The notes under the pieces were generated by a model, which was not told the DNA's origin, ran no database searches, and saw only the letters and a program-made list of their open reading frames with translations. The translations under genes were made by a program, and so were the position numbers. From Solirubrobacterales bacterium (lineage in GTDB: Bacteria > Actinomycetota > Thermoleophilia > Solirubrobacterales > Solirubrobacteraceae), in NCBI GenBank assembly GCA_003138355.1, contig PLFX01000043.1, positions 53,848 through 117,847 on the forward strand: DNA of 64,000 nucleotides, written 5' to 3'. Positions 8,612 through 52,312 of the stretch are shown piece after piece. Within the stretch, counting starts at the first letter, position 1. Every line of letters begins with the position of its first letter.

Positions 8612-9739
8612 CTAGCGCAGGAACGGCGGAACGTCGATGTCCTCGTCGCGAATCTCGAGCGAGGAGCGCTCCGGCTGGCGCGGACGTTCGCGCCGGCCGG
8701 GCTCGCGCCCAGGACGCTCCGCACGGCCGCTCGGCCGTTCGCGTGGCGGCGGCGAGACCGACTCTCGGCGGTTTGGCCGCAGCCGCGTCTCGGCTGGCGG
8801 TGCGAAGCCGGTGCCGATCACCGTCACGGTCACCTCCTCGCCGCGCTGCTCGTCGATCACTGCGCCGAAGATGATGTTCGCGTCCGGATCGGCCGCCGCC
8901 TGAACGATCTCGGCGGCCTCGTCGACCTCGAAGAGGCCGAGGTCGGGCGGACCGGTGATGTTGATGACGATGCCTGTCGCGCCCTGGATGTCCTCGTCGA
9001 TGAGCGGCGAGCTGATCGCGGCCTGCGCGGCGTCGCTCGCGCGACCCTCGCCGACGCCGGTGCCCATGCCCATCATCGCCGTGCCGGCGCCGGTCATGAT
9101 CGTGCGCACGTCGGCAAAGTCGAGGTTGATCAGGCCGGGCACGGTGACGAGGTCGGTGATCCCCTGGACCCCGTAGCGCAGGACGTTGTCCGCGACCTTG
9201 AACGCCTCGACCATTGACGTCTTCTTCTCGACGATCGTCAGCAGGCGCTCGTTCGGGATCACGATCAGCGCGTCGACCTGGTCGCGCAGGCGACGGATGC
9301 CCTCCTCGGCCTGGCGCATCCGGTGCGTTCCCTCGAAGTCGAACGGGCGTGTGACGATCCCGATCGTCAGCGCGCCGATCTCCTTCTTGGCGATCTCGGC
9401 GATGACGGGCGAGGCGCCGGTGCCGGTGCCGCCGCCTTCGCCGGCGGTCACGAACACCATGTCGGCGCCCTTGAGCACCTCTTTGATCTCGTCACGTGAC
9501 TCGGACGCGGCGCCGAAGCCCGTCTCCGGGTTGGCACCCGCGCCGAGGCCATGCGTCAGCTCGGCGCCGATGTTGATCTTGACCTCGGCATCGGCCGACT
9601 GGAGCGACTGCGAATCCGTATTCGTCGCGATGAACTCGACTCCGCGCAGGCCGGCGTCAACCATCCGGCTGACGGCGTTCGTGCCGGCGCCGCCGACGCC
9701 GACGACCTTTATGACCGCGAGATAGTTACCGCCGTCCAT
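8612..9739 (-). CDS. ftsZ: cell division protein FtsZ
   Basis: 375 aa. Contains '[10 protein letters not shown]', the tubulin signature '[15 protein letters not shown]', and the C-terminal peptide 'DIDVPPFLR'. Confidence 0.97.
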
Positions 9740-38696: not shown

Positions 38697-40109
38697 TCAG
38701 CGCAGCGGCTTGCGAGCAAGTGCGGCTAGCGCCTGCGCGGTCACCCAGACGGGGGTCTGCGAGACGCCCGAGCTGTAGTCGACAGCGCCCGCGGCGCTCG
38801 TCAATCGCTTGAGGTAGCTGAGGCCGACGGGCGCGCGGCCGGCGGCGATCAGCGCCTGCGCGGCCCACGCGGTCGACTGGGCGTCCGAGGGTCCGCCGGG
38901 CTGCTCGGGGAAGCCGCCGTCGTGGTTCTCGGCGTGGCGCAGGTAGGCGGTGCCTCGTTCGATCGCCGTCGCCGACCCGTTCGCGGCGACAAGCGCCTCG
39001 ATCGCGGCGGCGGTGTCGTCGACGTCGCTCGCGTCACCGCGCGCCGCGTAGCCGAAGCCGCCGTCCGGGTTCTGTTGCGCGGCGAGCCACGTCGGCGAGG
39101 GGCCGCGGGCCCCGGCGGCCTTGAGCGCGAGGATCCCGAAGGCGGTCAGGTTGACCTGGCGCGGGATCACGAGCTCGCGCACCAGGTCGTGGAGGGCGGC
39201 GTGCGCGCCCGCGAGCGCGAGGATCGTGCGCTCGATGTCGCCGGGTCCCTGGAGCTGACCGAGGTGCGACTCGATGTAGGTGACCGGCGTGTGGCCATCG
39301 CGCGTGAACGACGCGGGACTCGTGCCGGTCGCTTCGATCCCGATCAGCGCCCATGCAGTGAAGAGCTGAGATGACTGATCATCGCGCCAGCCCCCAAAAC
39401 CCCCGTCGCTGTTCTGCGCGGAGTGCAGATAGGCAAGCTGGCGTGCGATCGTCGGGGTCGTGCGCGCGAGCGCGAGACCCGTCGCGAGGCTGAGCCAGAG
39501 GACGAGGCTCAGCGAGGCGAAGACGACGACGCTGCGAGCGCGGAAGCGGCGCAGCGAGCGGATCAGGGCGGGTCCGACGGCGAGGAAGAAGAGGAGGTTT
39601 CCGATCGCGTGCGCGAGGTCGAACGGGAACGCCTGGCCCTCGACGAAGAGGAAGCCCGCGAACGTGTGGCTCGAGAAGGTGACCCAGGTCGAGAAGTTGA
39701 GGATCAGCCCATACGCGAAGCCCGCGGCGGCGCAGATCAAGGCCATCGGTAGGCGCGGGATCCGCCAGCGCGCGAGTCCCGCGCCTGCGAGTCCGACAAG
39801 CCCCCACGCGAGCATCTGCCAGGGCGTCCAGGGACCCTCGCCGAAGAAGATGTTCGACGCGATCGCCGACGTCGCGCCGACCGCGAAGCCCGGCGCGCCG
39901 CCGAGCGTGTAACCCGCGATCAGGACGATGTCGGTCGTCGGCTTGACGCTCGGGAGCGCGGCGAAGGCGATCCGCCCGAGCGTCGCGAGGGCGGCGAGCG
40001 TCGCGACGAGTGCGACGGTTCGGGAGCTCGGGCGCGAGCGCTCCCACCAGGCGAAGCCGCCGATCAGCGCGAGGCCAAGCAGCCCGAAGGCGGCGAGCTC
40101 CCAGCTCAT
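38697..40109 (-). CDS. ECF S-component-like membrane domain fused to prenyltransferase/terpene-cyclase-type alpha/alpha-toroid repeat domain
   Basis: Start placed at ATG 40109, giving an ATGA overlap with the ATPase stop; 470 aa.
- The N-terminal ~200 aa hold 5-6 TM helices ('LPSVKPTTDIVLIAGYTLGGAPGF').
- The C-terminal ~270 aa hold repeated 'QNSDGGFGGW', 'QNPDGGFGY' and 'ENHDGGFPE' motifs.
- The remainder of the 804-aa ORF overlaps the ATPase gene and is rejected. Confidence 0.75.
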   Translation of the reverse strand: MSWELAAFGLLGLALIGGFAWWERSRPSSRTVALVATLAALATLGRIAFAALPSVKPTTDIVLIAGYTLGGAPGFAVGATSAIASNIFFGEGPWTPWQMLAWGLVGLAGAGLARWRIPRLPMALICAAAGFAYGLILNFSTWVTFSSHTFAGFLFVEGQAFPFDLAHAIGNLLFFLAVGPALIRSLRRFRARSVVVFASLSLVLWLSLATGLALARTTPTIARQLAYLHSAQNSDGGFGGWRDDQSSQLFTAWALIGIEATGTSPASFTRDGHTPVTYIESHLGQLQGPGDIERTILALAGAHAALHDLVRELVIPRQVNLTAFGILALKAAGARGPSPTWLAAQQNPDGGFGYAARGDASDVDDTAAAIEALVAANGSATAIERGTAYLRHAENHDGGFPEQPGGPSDAQSTAWAAQALIAAGRAPVGLSYLKRLTSAAGAVDYSSGVSQTPVWVTAQALAALARKPLR

Positions 40110-41686
40110 GCCGCTGTCCAGGCAGTCAGGGCCGCAGCGCCCTGGTCGGGGGTGAGCGCGCCGGCGTGGCCGCGCAGGACGCGCGCCGTCTCGGTCGCGA
40201 AGTACCAGCCGCCGGCGAGCAGGTTCGCGGGCGGCGCGTCGGCGAGGATGCGCCCGCCGGCGAGGAGGATCGCGCGCGTCGCGAAGGCGGCGGCGAACTC
40301 GGGGTCGTGGGTTGCGACGATCACCGCCGCCCCGGCGGCGGCGCGGGCCTTGAGCGCGCTCGCGAGCTGCGCCTTGGCCCGGCGGTCCATGCCGCGGGTT
40401 GGCTCGTCGAGGCACAGCACGGCGGCTTCGTCGGCGGCGATCAGGGCGAGTGCGAGGCGCTGGCGCTCGCCGCCCGAGAGGTCGCGCGGCTGGCGGTCGC
40501 CGAGGTGCTCGAGACCGGCCGCCTTTAGCTCCGCGGGCGGGAGCTCGTCGGCGACGCGCTCGTGCGTGAAGTAGGCCGAGGGGTCCTGGAGCAGGAGCGC
40601 GACGTGGCCCGTAGCGCTGACGCGGCCGCGGGTCGGCGCCAGCAGACCCGCGGCGTGGCGCAGCAGCGTCGACTTGCCGGCGCCGTTGCGCCCGAGCAGA
40701 GCGATCAGCTCGCCCGCGCGCACGGCGAGCGAGACCGCGGCGAGGATCGTCGGTCCGCGGTCGAGCTCGTGCCACACACCGTCGAAGCGCAGCACGGCAT
40801 CCTCGGTGCGGCGCGAGCGACGTTCGCGCCGCGGCAGCGGTGGCGGCTCGCCGGCCGGTGGCAGCAGGTTGTGGCGCGCGAGCGTCGCGCGCGCCTGCTT
40901 GACGCCGGTCGGCGGGGGGTCGAGTCCGAGCGATGCGACGAGCCGCGCCGCGGGCGTCTCGAGGCTCGGCGCCGCGCCGTGGGCCCAGTCGAGGAACTCG
41001 CTCGGCGGCGCGTCGCAGGCGATCCGCCCGGCGTCGAGGACGACCACGCGGTCGGCGGCAGCCAGACAGCGCTCGAGGCGGTGCTCGGCGAGCAAGACGG
41101 CGGTCCCCCACTCCTCGTTCAGCCGGCGCAACAGGCCGAGCAGCTCGTCGCCCGCGACCGGGTCAAGCTGCGAGGTCGGCTCGTCGAGAGCGAGCAGCCG
41201 CGGGTGGCCGGCGAGTGCTGCGCCGAGCGCGACGCGCTGGAGCTCGCCGCCCGAGAGCGTGTTCGTGCGGCGGTCGAGCAGCGCGCTGACGCCGAGCGCG
41301 AGCGCCGCCTCCTCCACCCCTCGCGCGGTCGCGACCGCGTCGAAGCCGCGGTTCTCGAGCGGGAAGGCCAGCTCGGCGCGCGGCGTGCCCATCAGCACCT
41401 GGGTCTCGGGGTCTTGGAACAGCGCGCCGACGTGCGTGGCGAGCTCGGCCGGGCCGTTGTACTCGAGATCAAGGCCACAGACCTCGGCGTCGCCGGCGAG
41501 CGTGCCGCCGTGGAAGTGCGGGACGATCCCGCAGGCGAGGCCGAGCAGCGTGCTCTTGCCGGATGCGGAGAGCCCGGCGACGATCACGAACTCGCCTTCC
41601 TCGATCGTCAGGCTGACGCGGTCGAGCGCGGGGGCCGCCGCGCCCGGGTAGCGGTAGGTCAGCTCGTGCAGCTCGAGGACACTCAC
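40106..41686 (-). CDS. ecfA: ECF transporter fused double ATPase (EcfA1-EcfA2 type ABC protein)
   Basis: 526 aa with two ABC cassettes.
- Walker A: 'GLSASGKST' and 'GRNGAGKST'.
- Signature: 'LSGGELQR' and 'LSGGERQR'.
- Walker B: 'LLALDEP' and 'VLCLDEP'. Confidence 0.9.
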   Translation of the reverse strand: MSVLELHELTYRYPGAAAPALDRVSLTIEEGEFVIVAGLSASGKSTLLGLACGIVPHFHGGTLAGDAEVCGLDLEYNGPAELATHVGALFQDPETQVLMGTPRAELAFPLENRGFDAVATARGVEEAALALGVSALLDRRTNTLSGGELQRVALGAALAGHPRLLALDEPTSQLDPVAGDELLGLLRRLNEEWGTAVLLAEHRLERCLAAADRVVVLDAGRIACDAPPSEFLDWAHGAAPSLETPAARLVASLGLDPPPTGVKQARATLARHNLLPPAGEPPPLPRRERRSRRTEDAVLRFDGVWHELDRGPTILAAVSLAVRAGELIALLGRNGAGKSTLLRHAAGLLAPTRGRVSATGHVALLLQDPSAYFTHERVADELPPAELKAAGLEHLGDRQPRDLSGGERQRLALALIAADEAAVLCLDEPTRGMDRRAKAQLASALKARAAAGAAVIVATHDPEFAAAFATRAILLAGGRILADAPPANLLAGGWYFATETARVLRGHAGALTPDQGAAALTAWTAA

Positions 41687-42546
41687 CGCTCGATCCCCCG
41701 CCGCTGGCCGAAGGGCGCCGCGGCGAGCACGACGAAGGCGAGGCTCACCGCCTCGGTGCGCGCGCTCGCGAGCGAGCCGTGGAAGGTCGGATAGAAGTCA
41801 AACGGGGCGAGTCCGAGGAGCACAGTGATCAGCGCGAGCGCTGCGATCGCGGCCGCCGCGCCGGCGAACGCGAGGTCGTGGCGCGAGCGCGGAGCGCGGG
41901 CGGCGCGCGGGGCCGACGCGCTCGCGTAGCCGCGCACCTCGAGCGTCGCGGCGATGTCGAGCGCACGATCGAGCGCATTCGTCGTGATCGCGCGGGCGAT
42001 CAGCGTGCGTGGCGCGGGCCGCCGGCGGGTGCGCTGGGCCTCCGCGATCCGCTGCGCATCGAAGGCAAGCAGCGGAACCATCCGGGTCGCGAGCGTTGCC
42101 GTCAGCGCCGAGCGAAACGAGACGCGGCGCAGCGAGCGAAGCAGCGCGTCGGGGTCGATCGCCGCGCTCCAGAGCGCGCAAACCGCAACGGTGAGCGCGA
42201 GCTGAAGCCCGAACATGGCGCCGTAGGCGAGCGCCTCGAGCGTCGGGTCGACCTGGCCGAACGGTCCCCAGTCACCGAAGCGGGCGAGCACGGTCAGGCC
42301 GTTGCGCGAGACGAGCGGATTGATCAGCGCGACGACGAGCGCCATCGGCAGCGAGAGGTAGAGCGAGCGAGCGACGCGCCCGGGGGCACGGGCGCCGGCG
42401 GCGGCGGTCGCGATCGCCACCGCCAGCGCGCCGAGGACGAGCGGGTTATGGGTCAGGAGGATCGCGGTGACGAGCGCGGCGCAGTAGGCGCTCGCCGGTG
42501 CGGCGCGCGCCGCGTGCAGCGGGCTTGCGCGCGTGAGGTAGCTCAC
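41683..42546 (-). CDS. ecfT: ECF transporter transmembrane component (EcfT/CbiQ family)
   Basis: 287-aa multi-TM protein. Lies between the DUF4430 gene and the ATPase, with 4-nt overlaps at both ends. Arg-rich coupling-helix region 'RIAEAQRTRR'. Confidence 0.8.
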   Translation of the reverse strand: MSYLTRASPLHAARAAPASAYCAALVTAILLTHNPLVLGALAVAIATAAAGARAPGRVARSLYLSLPMALVVALINPLVSRNGLTVLARFGDWGPFGQVDPTLEALAYGAMFGLQLALTVAVCALWSAAIDPDALLRSLRRVSFRSALTATLATRMVPLLAFDAQRIAEAQRTRRRPAPRTLIARAITTNALDRALDIAATLEVRGYASASAPRAARAPRSRHDLAFAGAAAAIAALALITVLLGLAPFDFYPTFHGSLASARTEAVSLAFVVLAAAPFGQRRGIER

Positions 42547-43472
42547 GGCCCGCCCAGTGGCAACGGCTGCGCGACGTCGTTTGCGATCGCGACCGCGAAG
42601 TGCCCATCGAGCGTGCCGGCGTTGAACGCCTGCACCGCCGCCGTGACGCCGGCCGCGTCGGTGCCGGTGACAAACCAGACGGGCGGCGCGCCGTTCAGGC
42701 GCGTCGCGGCGATCAGGCCGGCGCCGGGGCCGAGCGTCTTGACGACTTGGCCAGTCTGGCCGAGGAGCTCGAGCTTGTCCCCGCCGTCAACGAAGCGCGC
42801 GAAGACGCCGCTCGCCGACGGGCCGTCGCGCAACAGGTCGGCGGTCCGGTCGATCGCGAGCGTCGAGTAGGGACCGACGACTACGCGCAGCGACTTGTTG
42901 TACGCGGCGCAGTCGAGGCAGCCGAGCCCGACGACGATCTGCTGGGCGCCGAGCGCGCCGAAGACGTTGGTGCAGGCTTTCGTGTTCGGCTGCGTGCACT
43001 CGACGCGAACGGGATAGCGCTGCCCGCCGTAGCCGTCGAGGAAGGGCTCAGGGAAGGAGCCGACAACCGCCGGGATGTTCTCGGTGCCGGCCCAGACGTG
43101 GCGATCCCACCAGATGTGATCCCCATCGTGGACCTTCGTGGCGGCGGCGCCCTTCCCCGACTGGACACCGTTGACGTAGAGGAACCAATCGTCGGGCTGA
43201 CCGTTCTGCGTGCCGCCCGATCGGCCGTCGATCGACTCGACGAAGCCACCGCCGTAGCGTGTCGTCACTCGCGCGTTGCGCTCGAGCAGGCGCATCACCG
43301 TGTCCGCGCCGGAGACCTTCGGCGCAGGTGATTGGAGCAGCGTCTGCACGCCGAACCCCTGCGTGACAAGGAGCGCGGCGCCCGTCGGCGTGGCCCCGGC
43401 GCCGATGCCGCAGGCGGTCGTGATGGCTATGCTACCAGCCACCACGACCGCGAGCAGGCGCTTGCGGCTCAT
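42543..43472 (-). CDS. lipoprotein with N-terminal DUF4430 (transcobalamin beta-domain-like) domain
   Basis: Start placed at ATG 43472 (ATGA overlap). Lipobox 'SIAITTACG'. 'TVMRLLERNARVTTRYGGGFVESIDGRSG...DDWFLYVNGVQSGKGAAATKVHDGDHIWW' matches the DUF4430 pattern. A C-terminal region of about 170 aa is unassigned. Confidence 0.75.
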   Translation of the reverse strand: MSRKRLLAVVVAGSIAITTACGIGAGATPTGAALLVTQGFGVQTLLQSPAPKVSGADTVMRLLERNARVTTRYGGGFVESIDGRSGGTQNGQPDDWFLYVNGVQSGKGAAATKVHDGDHIWWDRHVWAGTENIPAVVGSFPEPFLDGYGGQRYPVRVECTQPNTKACTNVFGALGAQQIVVGLGCLDCAAYNKSLRVVVGPYSTLAIDRTADLLRDGPSASGVFARFVDGGDKLELLGQTGQVVKTLGPGAGLIAATRLNGAPPVWFVTGTDAAGVTAAVQAFNAGTLDGHFAVAIANDVAQPLPLGGP

Positions 43473-44251
43473 CGCACCATGCGCGGGCACATCGCTCCGA
43501 GCTTGTGAACGCAGATCGCCGTCTCGTCGCGCACTGCGTTCGGCGCGCTCGCCTGGAGCTCGACGATCCCGGCGCTCGCGACGGTCAGCGTGGCCTCGCC
43601 CGAGCTCGTCGTGCTCGCGTGCGCGCCGGCGCCGCTAACGCTCGCACCGGCCTGCGGTGAGGGCTTGCCGGTGGCATTCGCGTAGCTCGTGACGAACACC
43701 TTGAACGGCTTGCCGACGAGCACTTCGGCCGGGCCGCTGATGCCGAGCACGTTCGCGGGCGCGGTCGACTTGCTCTTGCCGTCGTAGTCGGGGAAGAACA
43801 GGATGCTCGAGCCGGCGGTCGGGTAGAGCGAGCAGGCGCCGAGCTGCGCGGGCTTGTCGTTGACCCAGACGCTCCAGTAGTAGCTGGCGGAGCTCGAGTA
43901 GGCCTGGCCCTCGATCGCGCTGATGAAGTACTGGCGGTAGGACTTCGACCAGCTGCCCCCCCAGGCTCCCTTCGTCGCGTCCTGGAGCGCGCCGAGCGCG
44001 CTGAGGCCGCTACAGCTGTCTGTCGCCTTGCCGTCCTTGGTGACCGATCCGCTGGTCAGCGTGACGGCGGTCGGCGGCAGGAGCGTCTTTGTCAGGCCCT
44101 CGACGCGGACGGTGATGTTCGGCGTCGGGCCCTTCGGGACGGCGCTTGCCTGGCTTTGTGCGGCGAGAGCTCCGGCTGTGAGCAGCGCTGTGCCGGCGAG
44201 CGCAAGCGTGAGGCGCGCGCGCGAAGCGCGGCCGGGAACGGTGATCTTCAT
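43469..44251 (-). CDS. secreted protein with DUF4430 (transcobalamin beta-domain-like) domain
   Basis: ATG at 44251 preceded by 'ggaaagggg'. Signal peptide 'LTLALAGTALLTAGALAAQSQA'. Contains 'LSALGALQDATKG...YFISAIEGQAY...YYWSVWVNDKPAQLGACSLYPTAGSSILFF'. First gene after the cobalamin riboswitch. Confidence 0.7.
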   Translation of the reverse strand: MKITVPGRASRARLTLALAGTALLTAGALAAQSQASAVPKGPTPNITVRVEGLTKTLLPPTAVTLTSGSVTKDGKATDSCSGLSALGALQDATKGAWGGSWSKSYRQYFISAIEGQAYSSSASYYWSVWVNDKPAQLGACSLYPTAGSSILFFPDYDGKSKSTAPANVLGISGPAEVLVGKPFKVFVTSYANATGKPSPQAGASVSGAGAHASTTSSGEATLTVASAGIVELQASAPNAVRDETAICVHKLGAMCPRMVR

Positions 44252-44284
44252 CGGTGCCAACCCCTTTCCACGAGGGTTCTTGTG

Positions 44285-44455
44285 GGCTTGCGGTCGGCGC
44301 AGGTCTCCTGGCTTCCGGGCCGATCCTCTCCGCGCCTTCCCGGCTCGCTGTGGCGAGCCAGTGGCCGGCGCTCACGCGCCTGCGGTGGACTTCCCCGGTC
44401 ACAGTGGCGGGTCCGCGCCGGCCTCTCACCGGCTTCCCATGCCACCGACCTATGA
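44285..44455 (-). promoter_or_regulatory. cobalamin (B12) riboswitch
   Basis: The minus-strand RNA reads 'GGUCGGUGGCAUGGGAAGCCGGUGAGAGGCCGGCGCGGACCCGCCACUGUGACCGGGGAAG...' followed by the B12 box 'GGAAGCCAGGAGACCUGCGCCGACC'. P1 is GGUCGG/CCGACC. It matches the conserved cobalamin riboswitch core and lies directly upstream of the operon. Confidence 0.9.
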
Positions 44456-44465
44456 CCGGCGCATC

Positions 44466-44491
44466 GTAGCGCTCTGGCACACTGAAACGAG
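44466..44491 (+). repeat. copy A of a 26-nt direct repeat (GTMGCGCTCTGSCACACTGAAAYGAG)
   Basis: gtagcgctctggcacactgaaacgag. Matches copy B at 23 of 26 positions. Lies between the B12 riboswitch and the pduO start. Confidence 0.6.
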
Positions 44492-44495
44492 GACG

Positions 44496-45053
44496 ATGAG
44501 GATCAACCTGACGCGCATCTACACGAAGCTCGGCGACAGCGGCGAGACGCACCTCGGCGACCGCAGCCGCGTGCGAAAGGACGATCCGCGGATCGAGGCT
44601 TACGGGACGGTCGACGAGCTCGGCGCGCAGATCGGCGTCGCGCTCACGCAGCCCGGAATGCCGCCTCCCACCGTCGAGTGGCTGCGGCGGATCCAGAACG
44701 ACCTCTTCGACGTCGGAGCCGACCTCTGTGCCCCCGAGGATGAGCGCGAACGTCTGCGTGTTCAGTCGGCGCAGGTCGAATGGCTCGAAGCGCGCTGCGA
44801 CGAGGTCAACGAAACGCTCGAGCCGCTGCACTCCTTCGTACTCGCGGGCGCGAACGCGGCGTCGGCGTCACTGCACGTGTGCCGGACCGTCTGCCGGCGG
44901 GCCGAGCGCCGCGTTGTCGCGCTCGGGGAGGACGCGAGCCCCGTCGTCCTGCGCTACCTGAACCGGCTGAGCGACCTCTTGTTCATCCTCGCGCGCGACG
45001 CCGCGCGGGGTGAGGAGCTGCTCTGGGAGCCGGGCGCGGGGCGCGAGGCATAG
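44496..45053 (+). CDS. pduO: PduO-type ATP:cob(I)alamin adenosyltransferase
   Basis: ATG at 44496 preceded by 'GAGGA'. 185 aa: 'RIYTKLGDSGETHL...RIEAYGTVDELGAQIG...LFDVGADL...FVLAGANAASASLHVCRTVCRRAER'. Confidence 0.9.
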   Translation: MRINLTRIYTKLGDSGETHLGDRSRVRKDDPRIEAYGTVDELGAQIGVALTQPGMPPPTVEWLRRIQNDLFDVGADLCAPEDERERLRVQSAQVEWLEARCDEVNETLEPLHSFVLAGANAASASLHVCRTVCRRAERRVVALGEDASPVVLRYLNRLSDLLFILARDAARGEELLWEPGAGREA

Positions 45054-47393: not shown

Positions 47394-47672
47394 ATGAAGG
47401 GTCGTCGGCATACGCCGGAGCAGGTTGTTCGGAAGTTGCGGGAGGCCGACAGGCTGCTCGCGGAGGGCAGGTCGCTTCCCGAGGTCGCGAAGGCGCTCGA
47501 GGTGTCGGAGAACACGTTTCACCGGTGGCGCGCGCAGTACGGCGGGATGAAGGCCGACGATGTGAAGCGTTTGAAGGAGCTGGAGCGCGAGAACGTGACG
47601 TTGAAGCGGATCGTCGCGAACAAGGAGGTGGAGATCGAGGGGCTGAAGGAGATCGCGAAGGGAAACTGGTGA
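47394..47672 (+). CDS. IS3 family transposase OrfA (HTH)
   Basis: 92 aa. 'HTPEQVVRKLREADRLLAEGRSLPEVAKALEVSENTFHRWRAQYGGM' plus a leucine-zipper-like 'LKELERENVTLKRIVANKEVEIEGLKE'. Confidence 0.9.
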   Translation: MKGRRHTPEQVVRKLREADRLLAEGRSLPEVAKALEVSENTFHRWRAQYGGMKADDVKRLKELERENVTLKRIVANKEVEIEGLKEIAKGNW

Positions 47673-48620
47673 GCCCGTCGCGCCGGCGCCAGGCGGTCCT
47701 GATGCTTGTGGATCGTCTTGGTGTGTCGGAGCGGCGGGCGTGTCAGATCGCGGGTCAGCATCGCTCGACGCAGCGTCGCGAGCCGTGCATCGCGCCGGAT
47801 GACGCGGCGTTGCGTGCGCGCTTGCGCGAGATCTCCGCTGAGCGGCCCAGGTGGGGCTACCGTCGCGCGCACCAGCTGCTGCTCGACGACGGCTGGTCGT
47901 TGAATCGCAAGCGCACACAGCGGCTGTGGCGCGAGGAAGGCCTGAGAGTCCCGCAGCGGCGCCGCAAGCGCCAGCGCCTGGGCACCTCGACGGTGCCGGC
48001 GAGCCGGCTGCGAGCAGAGCGCCCCGATCACGTGTGGGCGTTGGACTTCCAGTTCGACCAGACCGCTGACGGGCGGATCCTCAAGCTGTTGCACATCGTC
48101 GACGAGTTCACCCGGGAGGCGCTGGCAATGGAGTGCCACCGGCGCATCGACGCTGACGGTCGCGACGCTCGAGCGGCTCGTCCAGGCCCGTGGCCGCGCC
48201 CCGCAGTTCATTCGCTGCGACAACGGGCCCGAGCTCACCGCGAACGCGCTGCGCGACTGGTGCCGTTTCGCGAAGACCGGGACCGCCTACATCGAGCCCG
48301 GCTCGCCGTGGCAGAACCCCTACGTCGAGTCGTTCAACTCCAGGGTTCGCGACGAGCTGCTCGCCGTCGAGCAGTTCAGCTGCCTCGCCGAGGCCAAGGT
48401 CCTCGTCGCCGACTGGCAAGAGGACTACAACCACCACCGGCCCCACTCGGCGCTCGCGATGATGGCCCCGGCCCGGTTCGCGACCGCCTGGAAGAGGGCC
48501 CAGCAGGACGCGCCCGCTGCCTCGCTCCGCTCGCCGCTACGCGGCTTCGCTCCGCGAGGCAGCGGCGCTAACGTTCACCCAACTACCAACCACCAACTCT
48601 CACAACAGGTGGACCGATGA
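47660..48620 (+). pseudogene. IS3 family transposase OrfB (rve/DDE), disrupted by an extra frameshift
   Basis: The -1 frame downstream of slippery G_GGA_AAC (47660-47666) reads '...RPRWGYRRAHQLL...PDHVWALDFQFDQTADGRILKLLHIVDEFTREALAMECHRRIDAD'. From about 48150 the homology continues in a different frame: 'TLERLVQARGRAPQFIRCDNGPELTANAL...GSPWQNPYVESFNSRVRDELL...YNHHRPHSAL', ending at 48620. Confidence 0.8.
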
Positions 48621-51040: not shown

Positions 51041-52312
51041 TCAGGCCGGTCCGCCGGGTATTGGGAACCCGCTCGTGAGTTCGCGGATCTCGCTGGCGAT
51101 CCGCTCGATCGTTGTCTCGTCTTGACGCTTGGCGGCTTCGATGCCTTCGTCGATCCAGCGCGCGATCTGTCGCATCTCGGGCTCGGTCATTCCGCGTGTC
51201 GTCGCCGCGGGCGTGCCTAGCCGCATGCCGGATGGGTCGAACGGCTTGCGCGGGTCGAACGGGACGGTGTTGTAGTTGGTTGTGATGCGCGCGCGATCCA
51301 GTGCCTTGGCGGCTATCTTGCCGGAGACCTGTTTGTTGGTGAGGTCGATCAGGATCAGGTGGTTGTCGGTCCCGCCGGAGACGAGATCAAACCCGCGACC
51401 GGTGAGAGCGGCGGCGAGCGCTTTAGCGTTCGCGACGACCTGTCGGGCGTAGCCGGCGAACTCTGGTCGCCGTGCTTCTTCGAGTGCGACAGCGATCGCT
51501 GCGGTCGTGTTGTTGTGCGGTCCACCCTGAAGGCCGGGGAAGACGGCACGATCGATCGCGGACGCGTGGTCTGCTGCGCACATCAGGATCGCGCCGCGTG
51601 GCCCGCGCAACGTCTTGTGTGTGGTTGTCGAGACGACTTCGGCGTGCCCGACCGGTGAGGCGTGAACGCCGCCGGCGATCAGTCCGGCGATGTGAGCGAT
51701 GTCGGCAACAAGGATCGCGTCGACCTCCCTGGCGATCTCGGCGAACGCTGCGAACTCGATCGCGCGCGGGATCGCGGTGCCGCCACAGAAGATCAGCTTC
51801 GGGCGCTCACGACGCGCGAGTGCTCGGACCTCATCAAGCTCGACCCGCCCGGTGTCCCGGTTCACCCCGTAGGACACGGAGCGAAACCACTTGCCCGTCA
51901 GCGACACGTTCCAGCCGTGGGTGAGGTGGCCGCCCATCGGCAGCGACATCCCCATCACCGTGTCGCCCGGCTCCAGGTAGGCGAGGTAGATCGCGAGGTT
52001 CGCCGGCGAACCGGAGTACGGCTGGACATTCGCATGCTCGACTCCGAACAGCTGCTTGGCGCGCTCGATCGCGAGAGGCTCAAGCCGGTCCACTACCTGC
52101 TGGCCCTCGTAGTAGCGTCGGCCCGCGTAGCCCTCCGAGTACTTGTTCGTGAACACGCTTCCCACCGCCTCAAGCACCGCGCGTGACACGTAGTTCTCAG
52201 ACGGGATCAGCGAGATCGTCCCCGACTGCCGCTCGAACTCCTCACCAATCAACCCGGCCAGCACCGGATCGGTGCCGTCAAGAGAACGATCCACCGACGC
52301 AATCACAGTCAT
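51041..52312 (-). CDS. glyA: serine hydroxymethyltransferase
   Basis: Start placed at ATG 52312. Contains 'LIPSENYVSRAVLEA', 'NKYSEGYAGRRYY', and the PLP-lysine region 'VVSTTTHKTLRGPRG'. Confidence 0.95.
   Translation of the reverse strand: MTVIASVDRSLDGTDPVLAGLIGEEFERQSGTISLIPSENYVSRAVLEAVGSVFTNKYSEGYAGRRYYEGQQVVDRLEPLAIERAKQLFGVEHANVQPYSGSPANLAIYLAYLEPGDTVMGMSLPMGGHLTHGWNVSLTGKWFRSVSYGVNRDTGRVELDEVRALARRERPKLIFCGGTAIPRAIEFAAFAEIAREVDAILVADIAHIAGLIAGGVHASPVGHAEVVSTTTHKTLRGPRGAILMCAADHASAIDRAVFPGLQGGPHNNTTAAIAVALEEARRPEFAGYARQVVANAKALAAALTGRGFDLVSGGTDNHLILIDLTNKQVSGKIAAKALDRARITTNYNTVPFDPRKPFDPSGMRLGTPAATTRGMTEPEMRQIARWIDEGIEAAKRQDETTIERIASEIRELTSGFPIPGGPA

Follow-up and report, generated by a model that had tools for sequence, protein, structure and literature searches.

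A probable energy-coupling factor importer of corrinoids with a toroid fused to its CbrT-type component in a Solirubrobacterales bacterium

We analyzed a 64,000-nucleotide stretch of DNA from a Solirubrobacterales bacterium (assembly GCA_003138355.1, contig PLFX01000043.1, positions 53,848 to 117,847; hereafter the window), in which five minus-strand genes for an energy-coupling factor (ECF) transporter and its putative extracellular partners lie directly behind a cobalamin riboswitch. The original prediction for this locus, made from the sequence without database searches, had listed the gene order and a domain content for each product. Profile searches bore out this list, returning two DUF4430 proteins, a CbiQ/EcfT protein, a double ABC_tran protein, and an S component joined to a Prenyltrans/SQHop_cyclase domain. 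The features, in window coordinates and with the evidence for each, are as follows.

44281 to 44499, minus strand: cobalamin riboswitch aptamer (RF00174) in the operon 5' leader; covariance-model match
44252 to 44280, minus strand: linker between aptamer and g1 with the Shine-Dalgarno-like GGAAAGGGG (44268-44260); sequence reading
43469 to 44251, minus strand: g1, secreted DUF4430 (transcobalamin-beta-like SLBB) protein, 260 aa; signal peptide and PF14478
42543 to 43472, minus strand: g2, DUF4430 lipoprotein, 309 aa; PF14478, Cys21, AlphaFold2 (AF2) model and Foldseek
41683 to 42546, minus strand: g3, EcfT (CbiQ family; CbrV-type) transmembrane coupling component, 287 aa; PF02361
40106 to 41686, minus strand: g4, fused double ATPase EcfA-EcfA' (CbrU-type), 526 aa; two ABC_tran domains
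38697 to 40109, minus strand: g5, whole gene, 470 aa; S component plus toroid
39534 to 40109, minus strand: g5 residues 1-192, CbrT-type S component; phmmer against the PDB, Pfam
39459 to 39533, minus strand: g5 residues 193-217, additional transmembrane helix; hydrophobicity, AF2
38697 to 39458, minus strand: g5 residues 218-470 and stop, alpha6/alpha6 toroid; PF00432, PF13243, PF13249, AF2, Foldseek
44496 to 45053, plus strand: PduO-type cob(I)alamin adenosyltransferase; PF01923, TIGR00636

Four 4-base start/stop overlaps join g1 through g5. All four had been described as ATGA; the overlaps themselves are real, but only g1/g2 and g4/g5 share ATGA, while g2/g3 and g3/g4 share GTGA. As judged from sequence, the operon would encode a dedicated (group I) ECF transporter, with a T component, two A-type ATPase domains, and an S component all in one transcription unit.

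The proposed cobalamin riboswitch was recovered by an RF00174 search (44499-44281, minus strand) at 75.5 bits against a gathering threshold of 31.5 (E = 8.3e-17) and over the full model, positions 1 to 189 of 189; its B12 box, GCCACUG, is intact. The 3' end of the aptamer lies 30 nt before the ATG of g1 (44251) on the same strand, and the Shine-Dalgarno-like stretch falls between the two. A promoter and terminator scan found no promoter, and no intrinsic terminator between aptamer and g1 on the operon strand. The riboswitch may exert its control at translation initiation.

Transcribed divergently from the same intergenic region, as had been noticed, is the gene for a PduO-type adenosyltransferase (PF01923, E = 7.5e-62; TIGR00636, 179 bits against a cut-off of 108). 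Its ATG (44496) abuts the 5' end of the aptamer on the opposite strand (match 44281-44499). The transporter operon must therefore be transcribed from a promoter located within pduO, whose own leader runs antisense to the aptamer. Mutual interference between the two divergent units may occur.

Relatives of g5 number in the thousands in the database, and among those with a named organism the closest belong to Solirubrobacteraceae. When one genome per species was scanned, at least 596 carriers were found, of which the best 80 were compared locus by locus; all 80 are Thermoleophilia, and one of them, Conexibacter arvalis DSM 23288 (locus L047), is in culture. Across these loci, the order DUF4430 lipoprotein-EcfT-EcfAA'-S::toroid is kept wherever the flank is sufficient. 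The cobalamin riboswitch was present at the same placement in 8/8 relatives tested with Rfam, and a nhmmer profile built from the Rfam-found aptamers placed one upstream, on the same strand, in every one of the 65 testable loci. A relative with 41% toroid identity (L085) has the same operon and a riboswitch scoring 90.5 bits, and about half of the related loci have a divergent PduO gene next to the riboswitch. Taken together, the conserved operon and riboswitch argue strongly, on comparative grounds, that the module as a whole, with its accessory genes, serves to acquire corrinoids.

The first gene of the operon is the variable one. A g1-like gene is usually present in relatives and differs in size; of the first genes scanned, 17/39 carried DUF4430, and a few had Ig-like domains (Big_13 in 3, CarboxypepD_reg in 2). 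The outermost capture component seems to be fast-evolving. One or two open reading frames (ORFs) of 140 to ~700 residues occupy the interval between riboswitch and g2 in loci L007, L013, L026, L029, L033, L036, L039, L047, L073, and L080.

The identity of the transporter is indicated by its S component. In a phmmer search of the PDB, residues 29-192 of g5 matched residues 9-175 of 6FNP chain A, a 182-aa membrane protein (E = 2e-11), and no S component other than that of 6FNP was matched. The size of this chain and the name of the entry suggest that it is CbrT. Pfam matches were to DUF6580, ECF_trnsprt, and ECF-ribofla_trS. The domain shares 37% identity with the S component of L. curvatus (E = 8e-31; family profile, E = 1e-48) and also matches the CbrT of the L. 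plantarum pMF1298-5 cluster (E = 3e-26; family profile, E = 1e-37). The S-component-like character first assigned to this domain was therefore correct, although its homology to CbrT had been missed. By these alignments the S domain is a CbrT homologue, which would make the core of the operon a dedicated version of a known, characterized B12 importer.

That importer, ECF-CbrT of L. delbrueckii (PDB 6FNP; Santos et al. 2018), imports both cobalamin and cobinamide and depends on ATP to do so, and CbrT binds cyanocobalamin with a Kd of 9 nM and cobinamide with a Kd of 36 nM (PMC5997447). The two systems share a homologous S component, ECF-type T and A partners, and a genomic link to PduO; the adjacency seen here mirrors the L. 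delbrueckii gene cluster nrdJ-cbrS-cbrT-pduO (PMC5997447). They differ in that the L. delbrueckii transporter belongs to group II, its solitary 182-aa CbrT having neither toroid nor extra helix and drawing on a shared ECF module encoded elsewhere, whereas the module described here is dedicated, its ATPases are fused, and its CbrT is extended by an N-terminal helix, a seventh helix, and a toroid.

The remaining core components are consistent with this assignment. The g3 product matches PF02361 (CbiQ/EcfT; E = 2.1e-11, 44.3 bits against a cut-off of 25) and is 25% identical to L. curvatus EcfT (E = 4e-13); it had no significant pairwise match to the T component of the L. plantarum pMF1298-5 cluster. 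The g4 product contains two ABC_tran domains in one chain (E = 1.8e-43). Its best NCBIfam models are ECF_ATPase_1/2 (TIGR04520/TIGR04521), at 258/251 bits against equivalog cut-offs of 315/330, scores that support ECF ATPase membership at the family level only. Aligned over its full length, it shares 31 to 32% identity with the duplicated ATPases encoded in the L. plantarum CbrU and L. curvatus clusters, with E = 2e-84 against the L. plantarum pMF1298-5 double ATPase.

The g5 protein departs from a stand-alone six-helix S protein of ~180 to 240 residues in having 470 residues, with an extra N-terminal helix, the S core, a seventh helix, and the toroid. Residues 194-212 form the most hydrophobic 19-mer of the protein (Kyte-Doolittle, 2.19) and are immediately preceded by RSLRRFRAR, with five K+R and zero acidic residues; the AF2 model has a helix at 200-212 between low-confidence linkers. 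S components have an N-in/C-in topology and end in the cytoplasm. Combined with the positive-inside rule and the seventh helix, this topology would place the toroid outside the cell, the side to which the DUF4430 proteins are exported. L. delbrueckii CbrT has no counterpart of the additional hydrophobic N-terminal helix (g5 residues 3-25; 40035-40103, minus strand). An N-terminal extension of 35 to 55 residues is likewise carried by the dedicated S components of L. curvatus, L. plantarum, and Bacillus.

Both of the first two genes encode exported DUF4430 proteins. That of g1 has a Sec-type signal peptide ending ASA|V and a PF14478 match (E = 7.7e-8, 33.1 bits against a cut-off of 23.8), followed by a C-terminal domain with no Pfam match. 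That of g2 matches PF14478 at E = 4.6e-15, and its signal peptide ends at Cys21, a residue nearly invariant across the family, whose consensus lipobox is LAGC. BLASTP detected no similarity between g1 and g2, which are considered paralogues because they have this Pfam domain in common. The AF2 model of g2 has a pLDDT of 68.7 overall and of 74 to 93 across the DUF4430 region. Its best Foldseek match in the PDB was 3U7Z, a DUF4430 protein of Ruminococcus gnavus, and the next were to the human transcobalamin beta domain (5NO0/5NP4/2BB5), with a TM score of 0.70 and a root mean square deviation of 2.6 Å. These include the isolated beta domain both in its apo form and bound to cyanocobalamin (5NP4); further matches were to full-length transcobalamin, haptocorrin, and intrinsic factor (including 4KKI and 2PMV). 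On this modeled structure, the DUF4430 domain of g2 does match the transcobalamin-beta fold, and the proposed homology of DUF4430 to that domain holds for g2. PDB searches at the sequence level, single-sequence and profile, with g1, g2, and the g2 family returned nothing meaningful, so this kinship is visible through structure comparison only. Because a cobalamin-bound isolated beta domain exists, a domain of this kind is able to bind B12 even when no alpha domain is covalently joined to it. The C-terminal ~170 residues of g2 had no Pfam match and no convincing structural match; residues 136-309 (42546-43067, minus strand) make up an alpha/beta domain that is conserved and in which cysteines C159 and C167 are invariant.

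The C-terminal domain of g5 matches PF00432 (E = 4.3e-7) as well as PF13243 and PF13249 (Prenyltrans/SQHop_cyclase), and the QN(S/P)DGGFG repeats described in it are present as QNSDGGF, QNPDGGF, and ENHDGGF at residues 232, 346, and 394. In the AF2 model, where its pLDDT exceeds 90, it is a single barrel of 12 helices and ~250 residues, for which the best Foldseek matches were drimenyl-diphosphate synthase, squalene-hopene cyclases, and the beta subunits of farnesyl/geranylgeranyl transferases. The toroid is thus a member of the terpene-cyclase/prenyltransferase superfamily. It shares with class II terpene cyclases and prenyltransferase beta subunits the alpha6/alpha6 barrel, the QxxDGGF-type repeats, and an SDxDDT at the DxDD position: SDVDDT (g5 residues 361-366; 39012-39029, minus strand) aligns with sdvDDT, the DxDD acid motif of 7XQ4, and D364 aligns with the catalytic Asp of drimenyl diphosphate synthase, the residue changed from D to E in the D303E entry 7XR7. 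A DxDD-like Asp is kept in ~90 to 95% of fused and of free toroid family members. Unlike the class II cyclases, the toroid is one ~250-residue barrel, predicted to lie outside the membrane and fused to a vitamin transporter, with no isoprenoid genes nearby. The DxDD-like motif has no obvious role within a B12-binding module. Membership of g5 in the NCBIfam family SCO2321_fam was rejected; the match covers part of the toroid only and scores 73.5 bits against a cut-off of 300.

A database search with the toroid gave 3114 clusters at E ≤ 0.001. The best 149 representatives, for which architectures were counted, comprise 55 S::toroid fusions, 91 free anchored toroids, and 1 DUF4430::toroid fusion, and the same conserved motifs run across fused and free representatives. 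The S::toroid fusion is a common architecture in the database, apparently centred on Thermoleophilia; we found no description of it in the searchable literature. Covalent attachment to a CbrT homologue implies that the toroid works at the transporter itself. A match on Streptomyces clavuligerus pSCL4 (L084) was set aside as an unrelated terpene-cyclase-like gene, being a two-segment toroid ORF without ECF, DUF4430, or riboswitch neighbors.

Several described systems contain parts of this module. The L. plantarum pMF1298-5 cluster lies within a cobalamin-salvage region and carries a RAST-based annotation as CbrV-CbrU-CbrT (PMC6722938), names to which g3, g4, and g5 correspond. It likewise combines in one operon a dedicated T component, a duplicated ATPase, a CbrT-like S component, a DUF4430 protein, and a weakly toroid-like protein; it differs in its order (T-AA'-S-X-DUF4430), in its separate toroid-like gene and single DUF4430 gene, and in having no RF00174 match. 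The L. sakei operon lsa1836-1840 and its L. curvatus orthologue (L081) have all five component types in the order toroid / DUF4430 / EcfT / EcfAA' / S, and profiles from the Thermoleophilia family match every L. curvatus counterpart. In that system, however, the toroid is encoded by its own gene as an LPXTG wall-anchored protein, only one DUF4430 protein and no riboswitch are present, and the phenotype concerns heme. Verplaetse et al. had already called the two extracellular proteins of L. sakei alpha- and beta-like transcobalamin subunits (bioRxiv 10.1101/864751). A Bacillus operon (L083) is arranged as [DUF4430+toroid]-DUF4430-T-AA'-S, an order that parallels the Solirubrobacteraceae locus; a S-adenosylmethionine (SAM) riboswitch lies ~1.25 kb downstream of that cluster (8805-8903).

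The concept itself dates from Burroughs, Balaji, Iyer, and Aravind, who in 2007 defined a transcobalamin-like SLBB clade of secreted proteins, often fused to an alpha/alpha toroid and often accompanied by a second paralogue, in operons with CbiO- and CbiQ-like genes, and who proposed that they scavenge B12 or its precursors and that animal transcobalamin originated in bacteria (PMC1796856). The secreted SLBB/DUF4430 protein, the second paralogous SLBB gene, and the CbiO/CbiQ-like genes all recur here. In their proteins, however, it is SLBB that is joined to the toroid, whereas here the fusion partner of the toroid is the S component, with both SLBB proteins left unfused; this S-component fusion is absent from their account (PMC1796856). 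The original prediction held that the architecture has no experimentally characterized representative. That claim is incorrect, in that ECF-CbrT has been characterized (PMC5997447) and the L. sakei operon has been studied genetically (bioRxiv 10.1101/864751); with the concept already published, novelty was overstated as well. The locus, with its two free DUF4430 proteins and its riboswitch control, is a variant within a type of system already described, and only the S-component::toroid fusion via an extra transmembrane helix is unusual. To our knowledge, none of the bacterial transcobalamin-like proteins predicted in 2007 has been shown to bind B12.

Because the riboswitch is conserved, the S domain matches CbrT and no other S component in the PDB, g2 has a transcobalamin-beta fold, and PduO is adjacent, we consider it probable that the operon encodes a dedicated (group I) CbrT/CbrU/CbrV-type ECF importer of cobalamin and related corrinoids, repressed by B12 through its riboswitch. 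These same four lines of evidence uphold the corrinoid capture and uptake reading first put forward from the sequence. According to this model, when corrinoid is scarce the leader would permit expression, and the four 4-base overlaps would couple translation of g1 to g5. The g1 product would be exported and released and the g2 product exported and lipid-anchored, so that their DUF4430/SLBB domains could capture corrinoid outside the cell. The seventh helix would hold the toroid on the outer membrane face, where it might offer a partner surface for loaded DUF4430, much as the transcobalamin alpha domain does, and pass the corrinoid on to the cavity of CbrT just below it. Import would then be carried out by CbrT, EcfT, and the fused EcfAA', as in L. 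delbrueckii ECF-CbrT; PduO would adenosylate the imported corrinoid, and adenosylcobalamin would shut the operon off via the riboswitch. We infer the hand-off from DUF4430 to toroid to CbrT, and with it corrinoid binding by the toroid.

The extracellular steps lean on an analogy with the mammalian carriers transcobalamin, intrinsic factor, and haptocorrin, in which an alpha/alpha toroid is likewise paired with a beta domain of the g2 DUF4430 fold; by this analogy, B12 might here be clamped between the toroid and DUF4430 parts. In the mammalian proteins, however, both domains lie in a single soluble chain with the toroid N-terminal, whereas here g5 carries the toroid and g1 and g2 carry the DUF4430 domains, and the g5 toroid is nearer to terpene cyclases.

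A number of observations weigh against the corrinoid reading or against parts of it. Pfam Cobalamin_bind (PF01122) matched 0/46 toroid family members even at E ≤ 10, and the 50 structures ranked highest by Foldseek for the g5 model included no transcobalamin, intrinsic factor, or haptocorrin chain. The toroid therefore has no detectable kinship with the transcobalamin alpha domain, of which it had been presented as the counterpart; it is a functional analogue by context only. L. delbrueckii ECF-CbrT needs no accessory protein to function, which means that the DUF4430 and toroid parts may have some other task or may not be required at all. As to the expression platform, the local leader fold has a z of -1.66, below significance. 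The Bacillota relatives L081, L082, and L083 (Lactobacillaceae, Bacillus) lack a cobalamin riboswitch, and the sole five-part operon with genetic data, that of L. sakei, was linked to heme, with cobalamin outside the study.

This last point raises the alternative that the operon imports heme or another non-corrin tetrapyrrole, as proposed for lsa1836-1840, whose deletion impaired heme accumulation and whose complementation restored it (bioRxiv 10.1101/864751). The resemblance is considerable, given the S-domain identity to the L. curvatus orthologue, the five component types in common, and the lack of a cobalamin riboswitch in the Lactobacillaceae clusters examined. The L. sakei study, however, covered no cobalamin test, and hemin did not compete with B12 for uptake by ECF-CbrT (PMC5997447). 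The heme-related context is also missing from the present locus: a cobalamin riboswitch precedes the operon in every testable relative, PduO is the neighbor, and the seven flanking ORFs scanned contain no heme oxygenase, Dyp peroxidase, or catalase. A heme importer is thus quite improbable. Still more remote is a CbiMNQO-type transporter of cobalt (or nickel). B12 riboswitches also commonly control cobalt uptake, and g3 and g4 belong by name to the CbiQ and CbiO families, but there is no CbiM or CbiN, the S domain matches CbrT alone, and extracellular transcobalamin-beta-like domains would have no role in metal-ion uptake. Moreover, the T and A components fall far below the cobalt equivalog cut-offs (TIGR02454, 29.8 against 111.8; NF010171, 206 against 476).

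A different question is what the toroid does within a corrinoid importer. It could be an enzyme on the outer membrane face, either a terpene-cyclase-like acid catalyst or a corrinoid-modifying one, with capture left to the DUF4430 proteins alone; its closest relatives in sequence and structure are class II terpene cyclases, and D364, at the position of the catalytic DxDD Asp, is widely conserved in fused and free members alike. The active site of class II terpene cyclases lies between two alpha-barrel (beta-gamma) domains, however, and g5 has only one barrel of 250 residues, predicted to be extracytoplasmic. The DDTA of the toroid sits at the position of a repeated xxTA helix-start motif, and the strict linkage to DUF4430 and the B12 riboswitch, along with the DUF4430 fusion in Bacillus, points to ligand handling. 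We therefore regard an enzymatic toroid as unlikely. Returning to the corrinoid importer, a more elaborate version of it would be a three-part extracellular relay in which g1 acts as a diffusible, hemophore-like B12 carrier, g2 as a membrane-proximal acceptor, and the CbrT-tethered toroid completes a transcobalamin-like clamp over the transporter mouth. This arrangement is conceivable, but we hold it tentatively and would not favor it on present evidence. If it were true, it would be a relay not previously demonstrated in any bacterium, the S::toroid fusion would be direct physical evidence for where the toroid works in all the unfused systems, and the locus would provide a living model for the bacterial arrangement out of which animal transcobalamin was put together.

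Although no new kind of system is revealed, the locus bears on the bacterial origin of animal B12 carriers, and the S::toroid lineage addresses the question of how B12 is captured before ECF uptake in bacteria without an outer membrane. The strictly conserved riboswitch ties the whole five-part module to corrinoids, where the only genetic study of such operons had pointed to heme. The module is a compact, testable complex, and C. arvalis provides a cultured carrier.

Beyond PduO, an IS3-type transposase pair lies 2.3 kb away at 47394-48571 of the window (plus strand), in which a long ORF follows and overlaps a small HTH_Tnp_1 ORF (E = 5e-16). Farther along, a ZMP/ZTP riboswitch (RF01750, 52334-52420, minus strand, 61.2 bits) stands directly upstream of a serine hydroxymethyltransferase gene (51044-52300, minus strand, E = 1.7e-148), a pairing that is ordinary for this riboswitch class.

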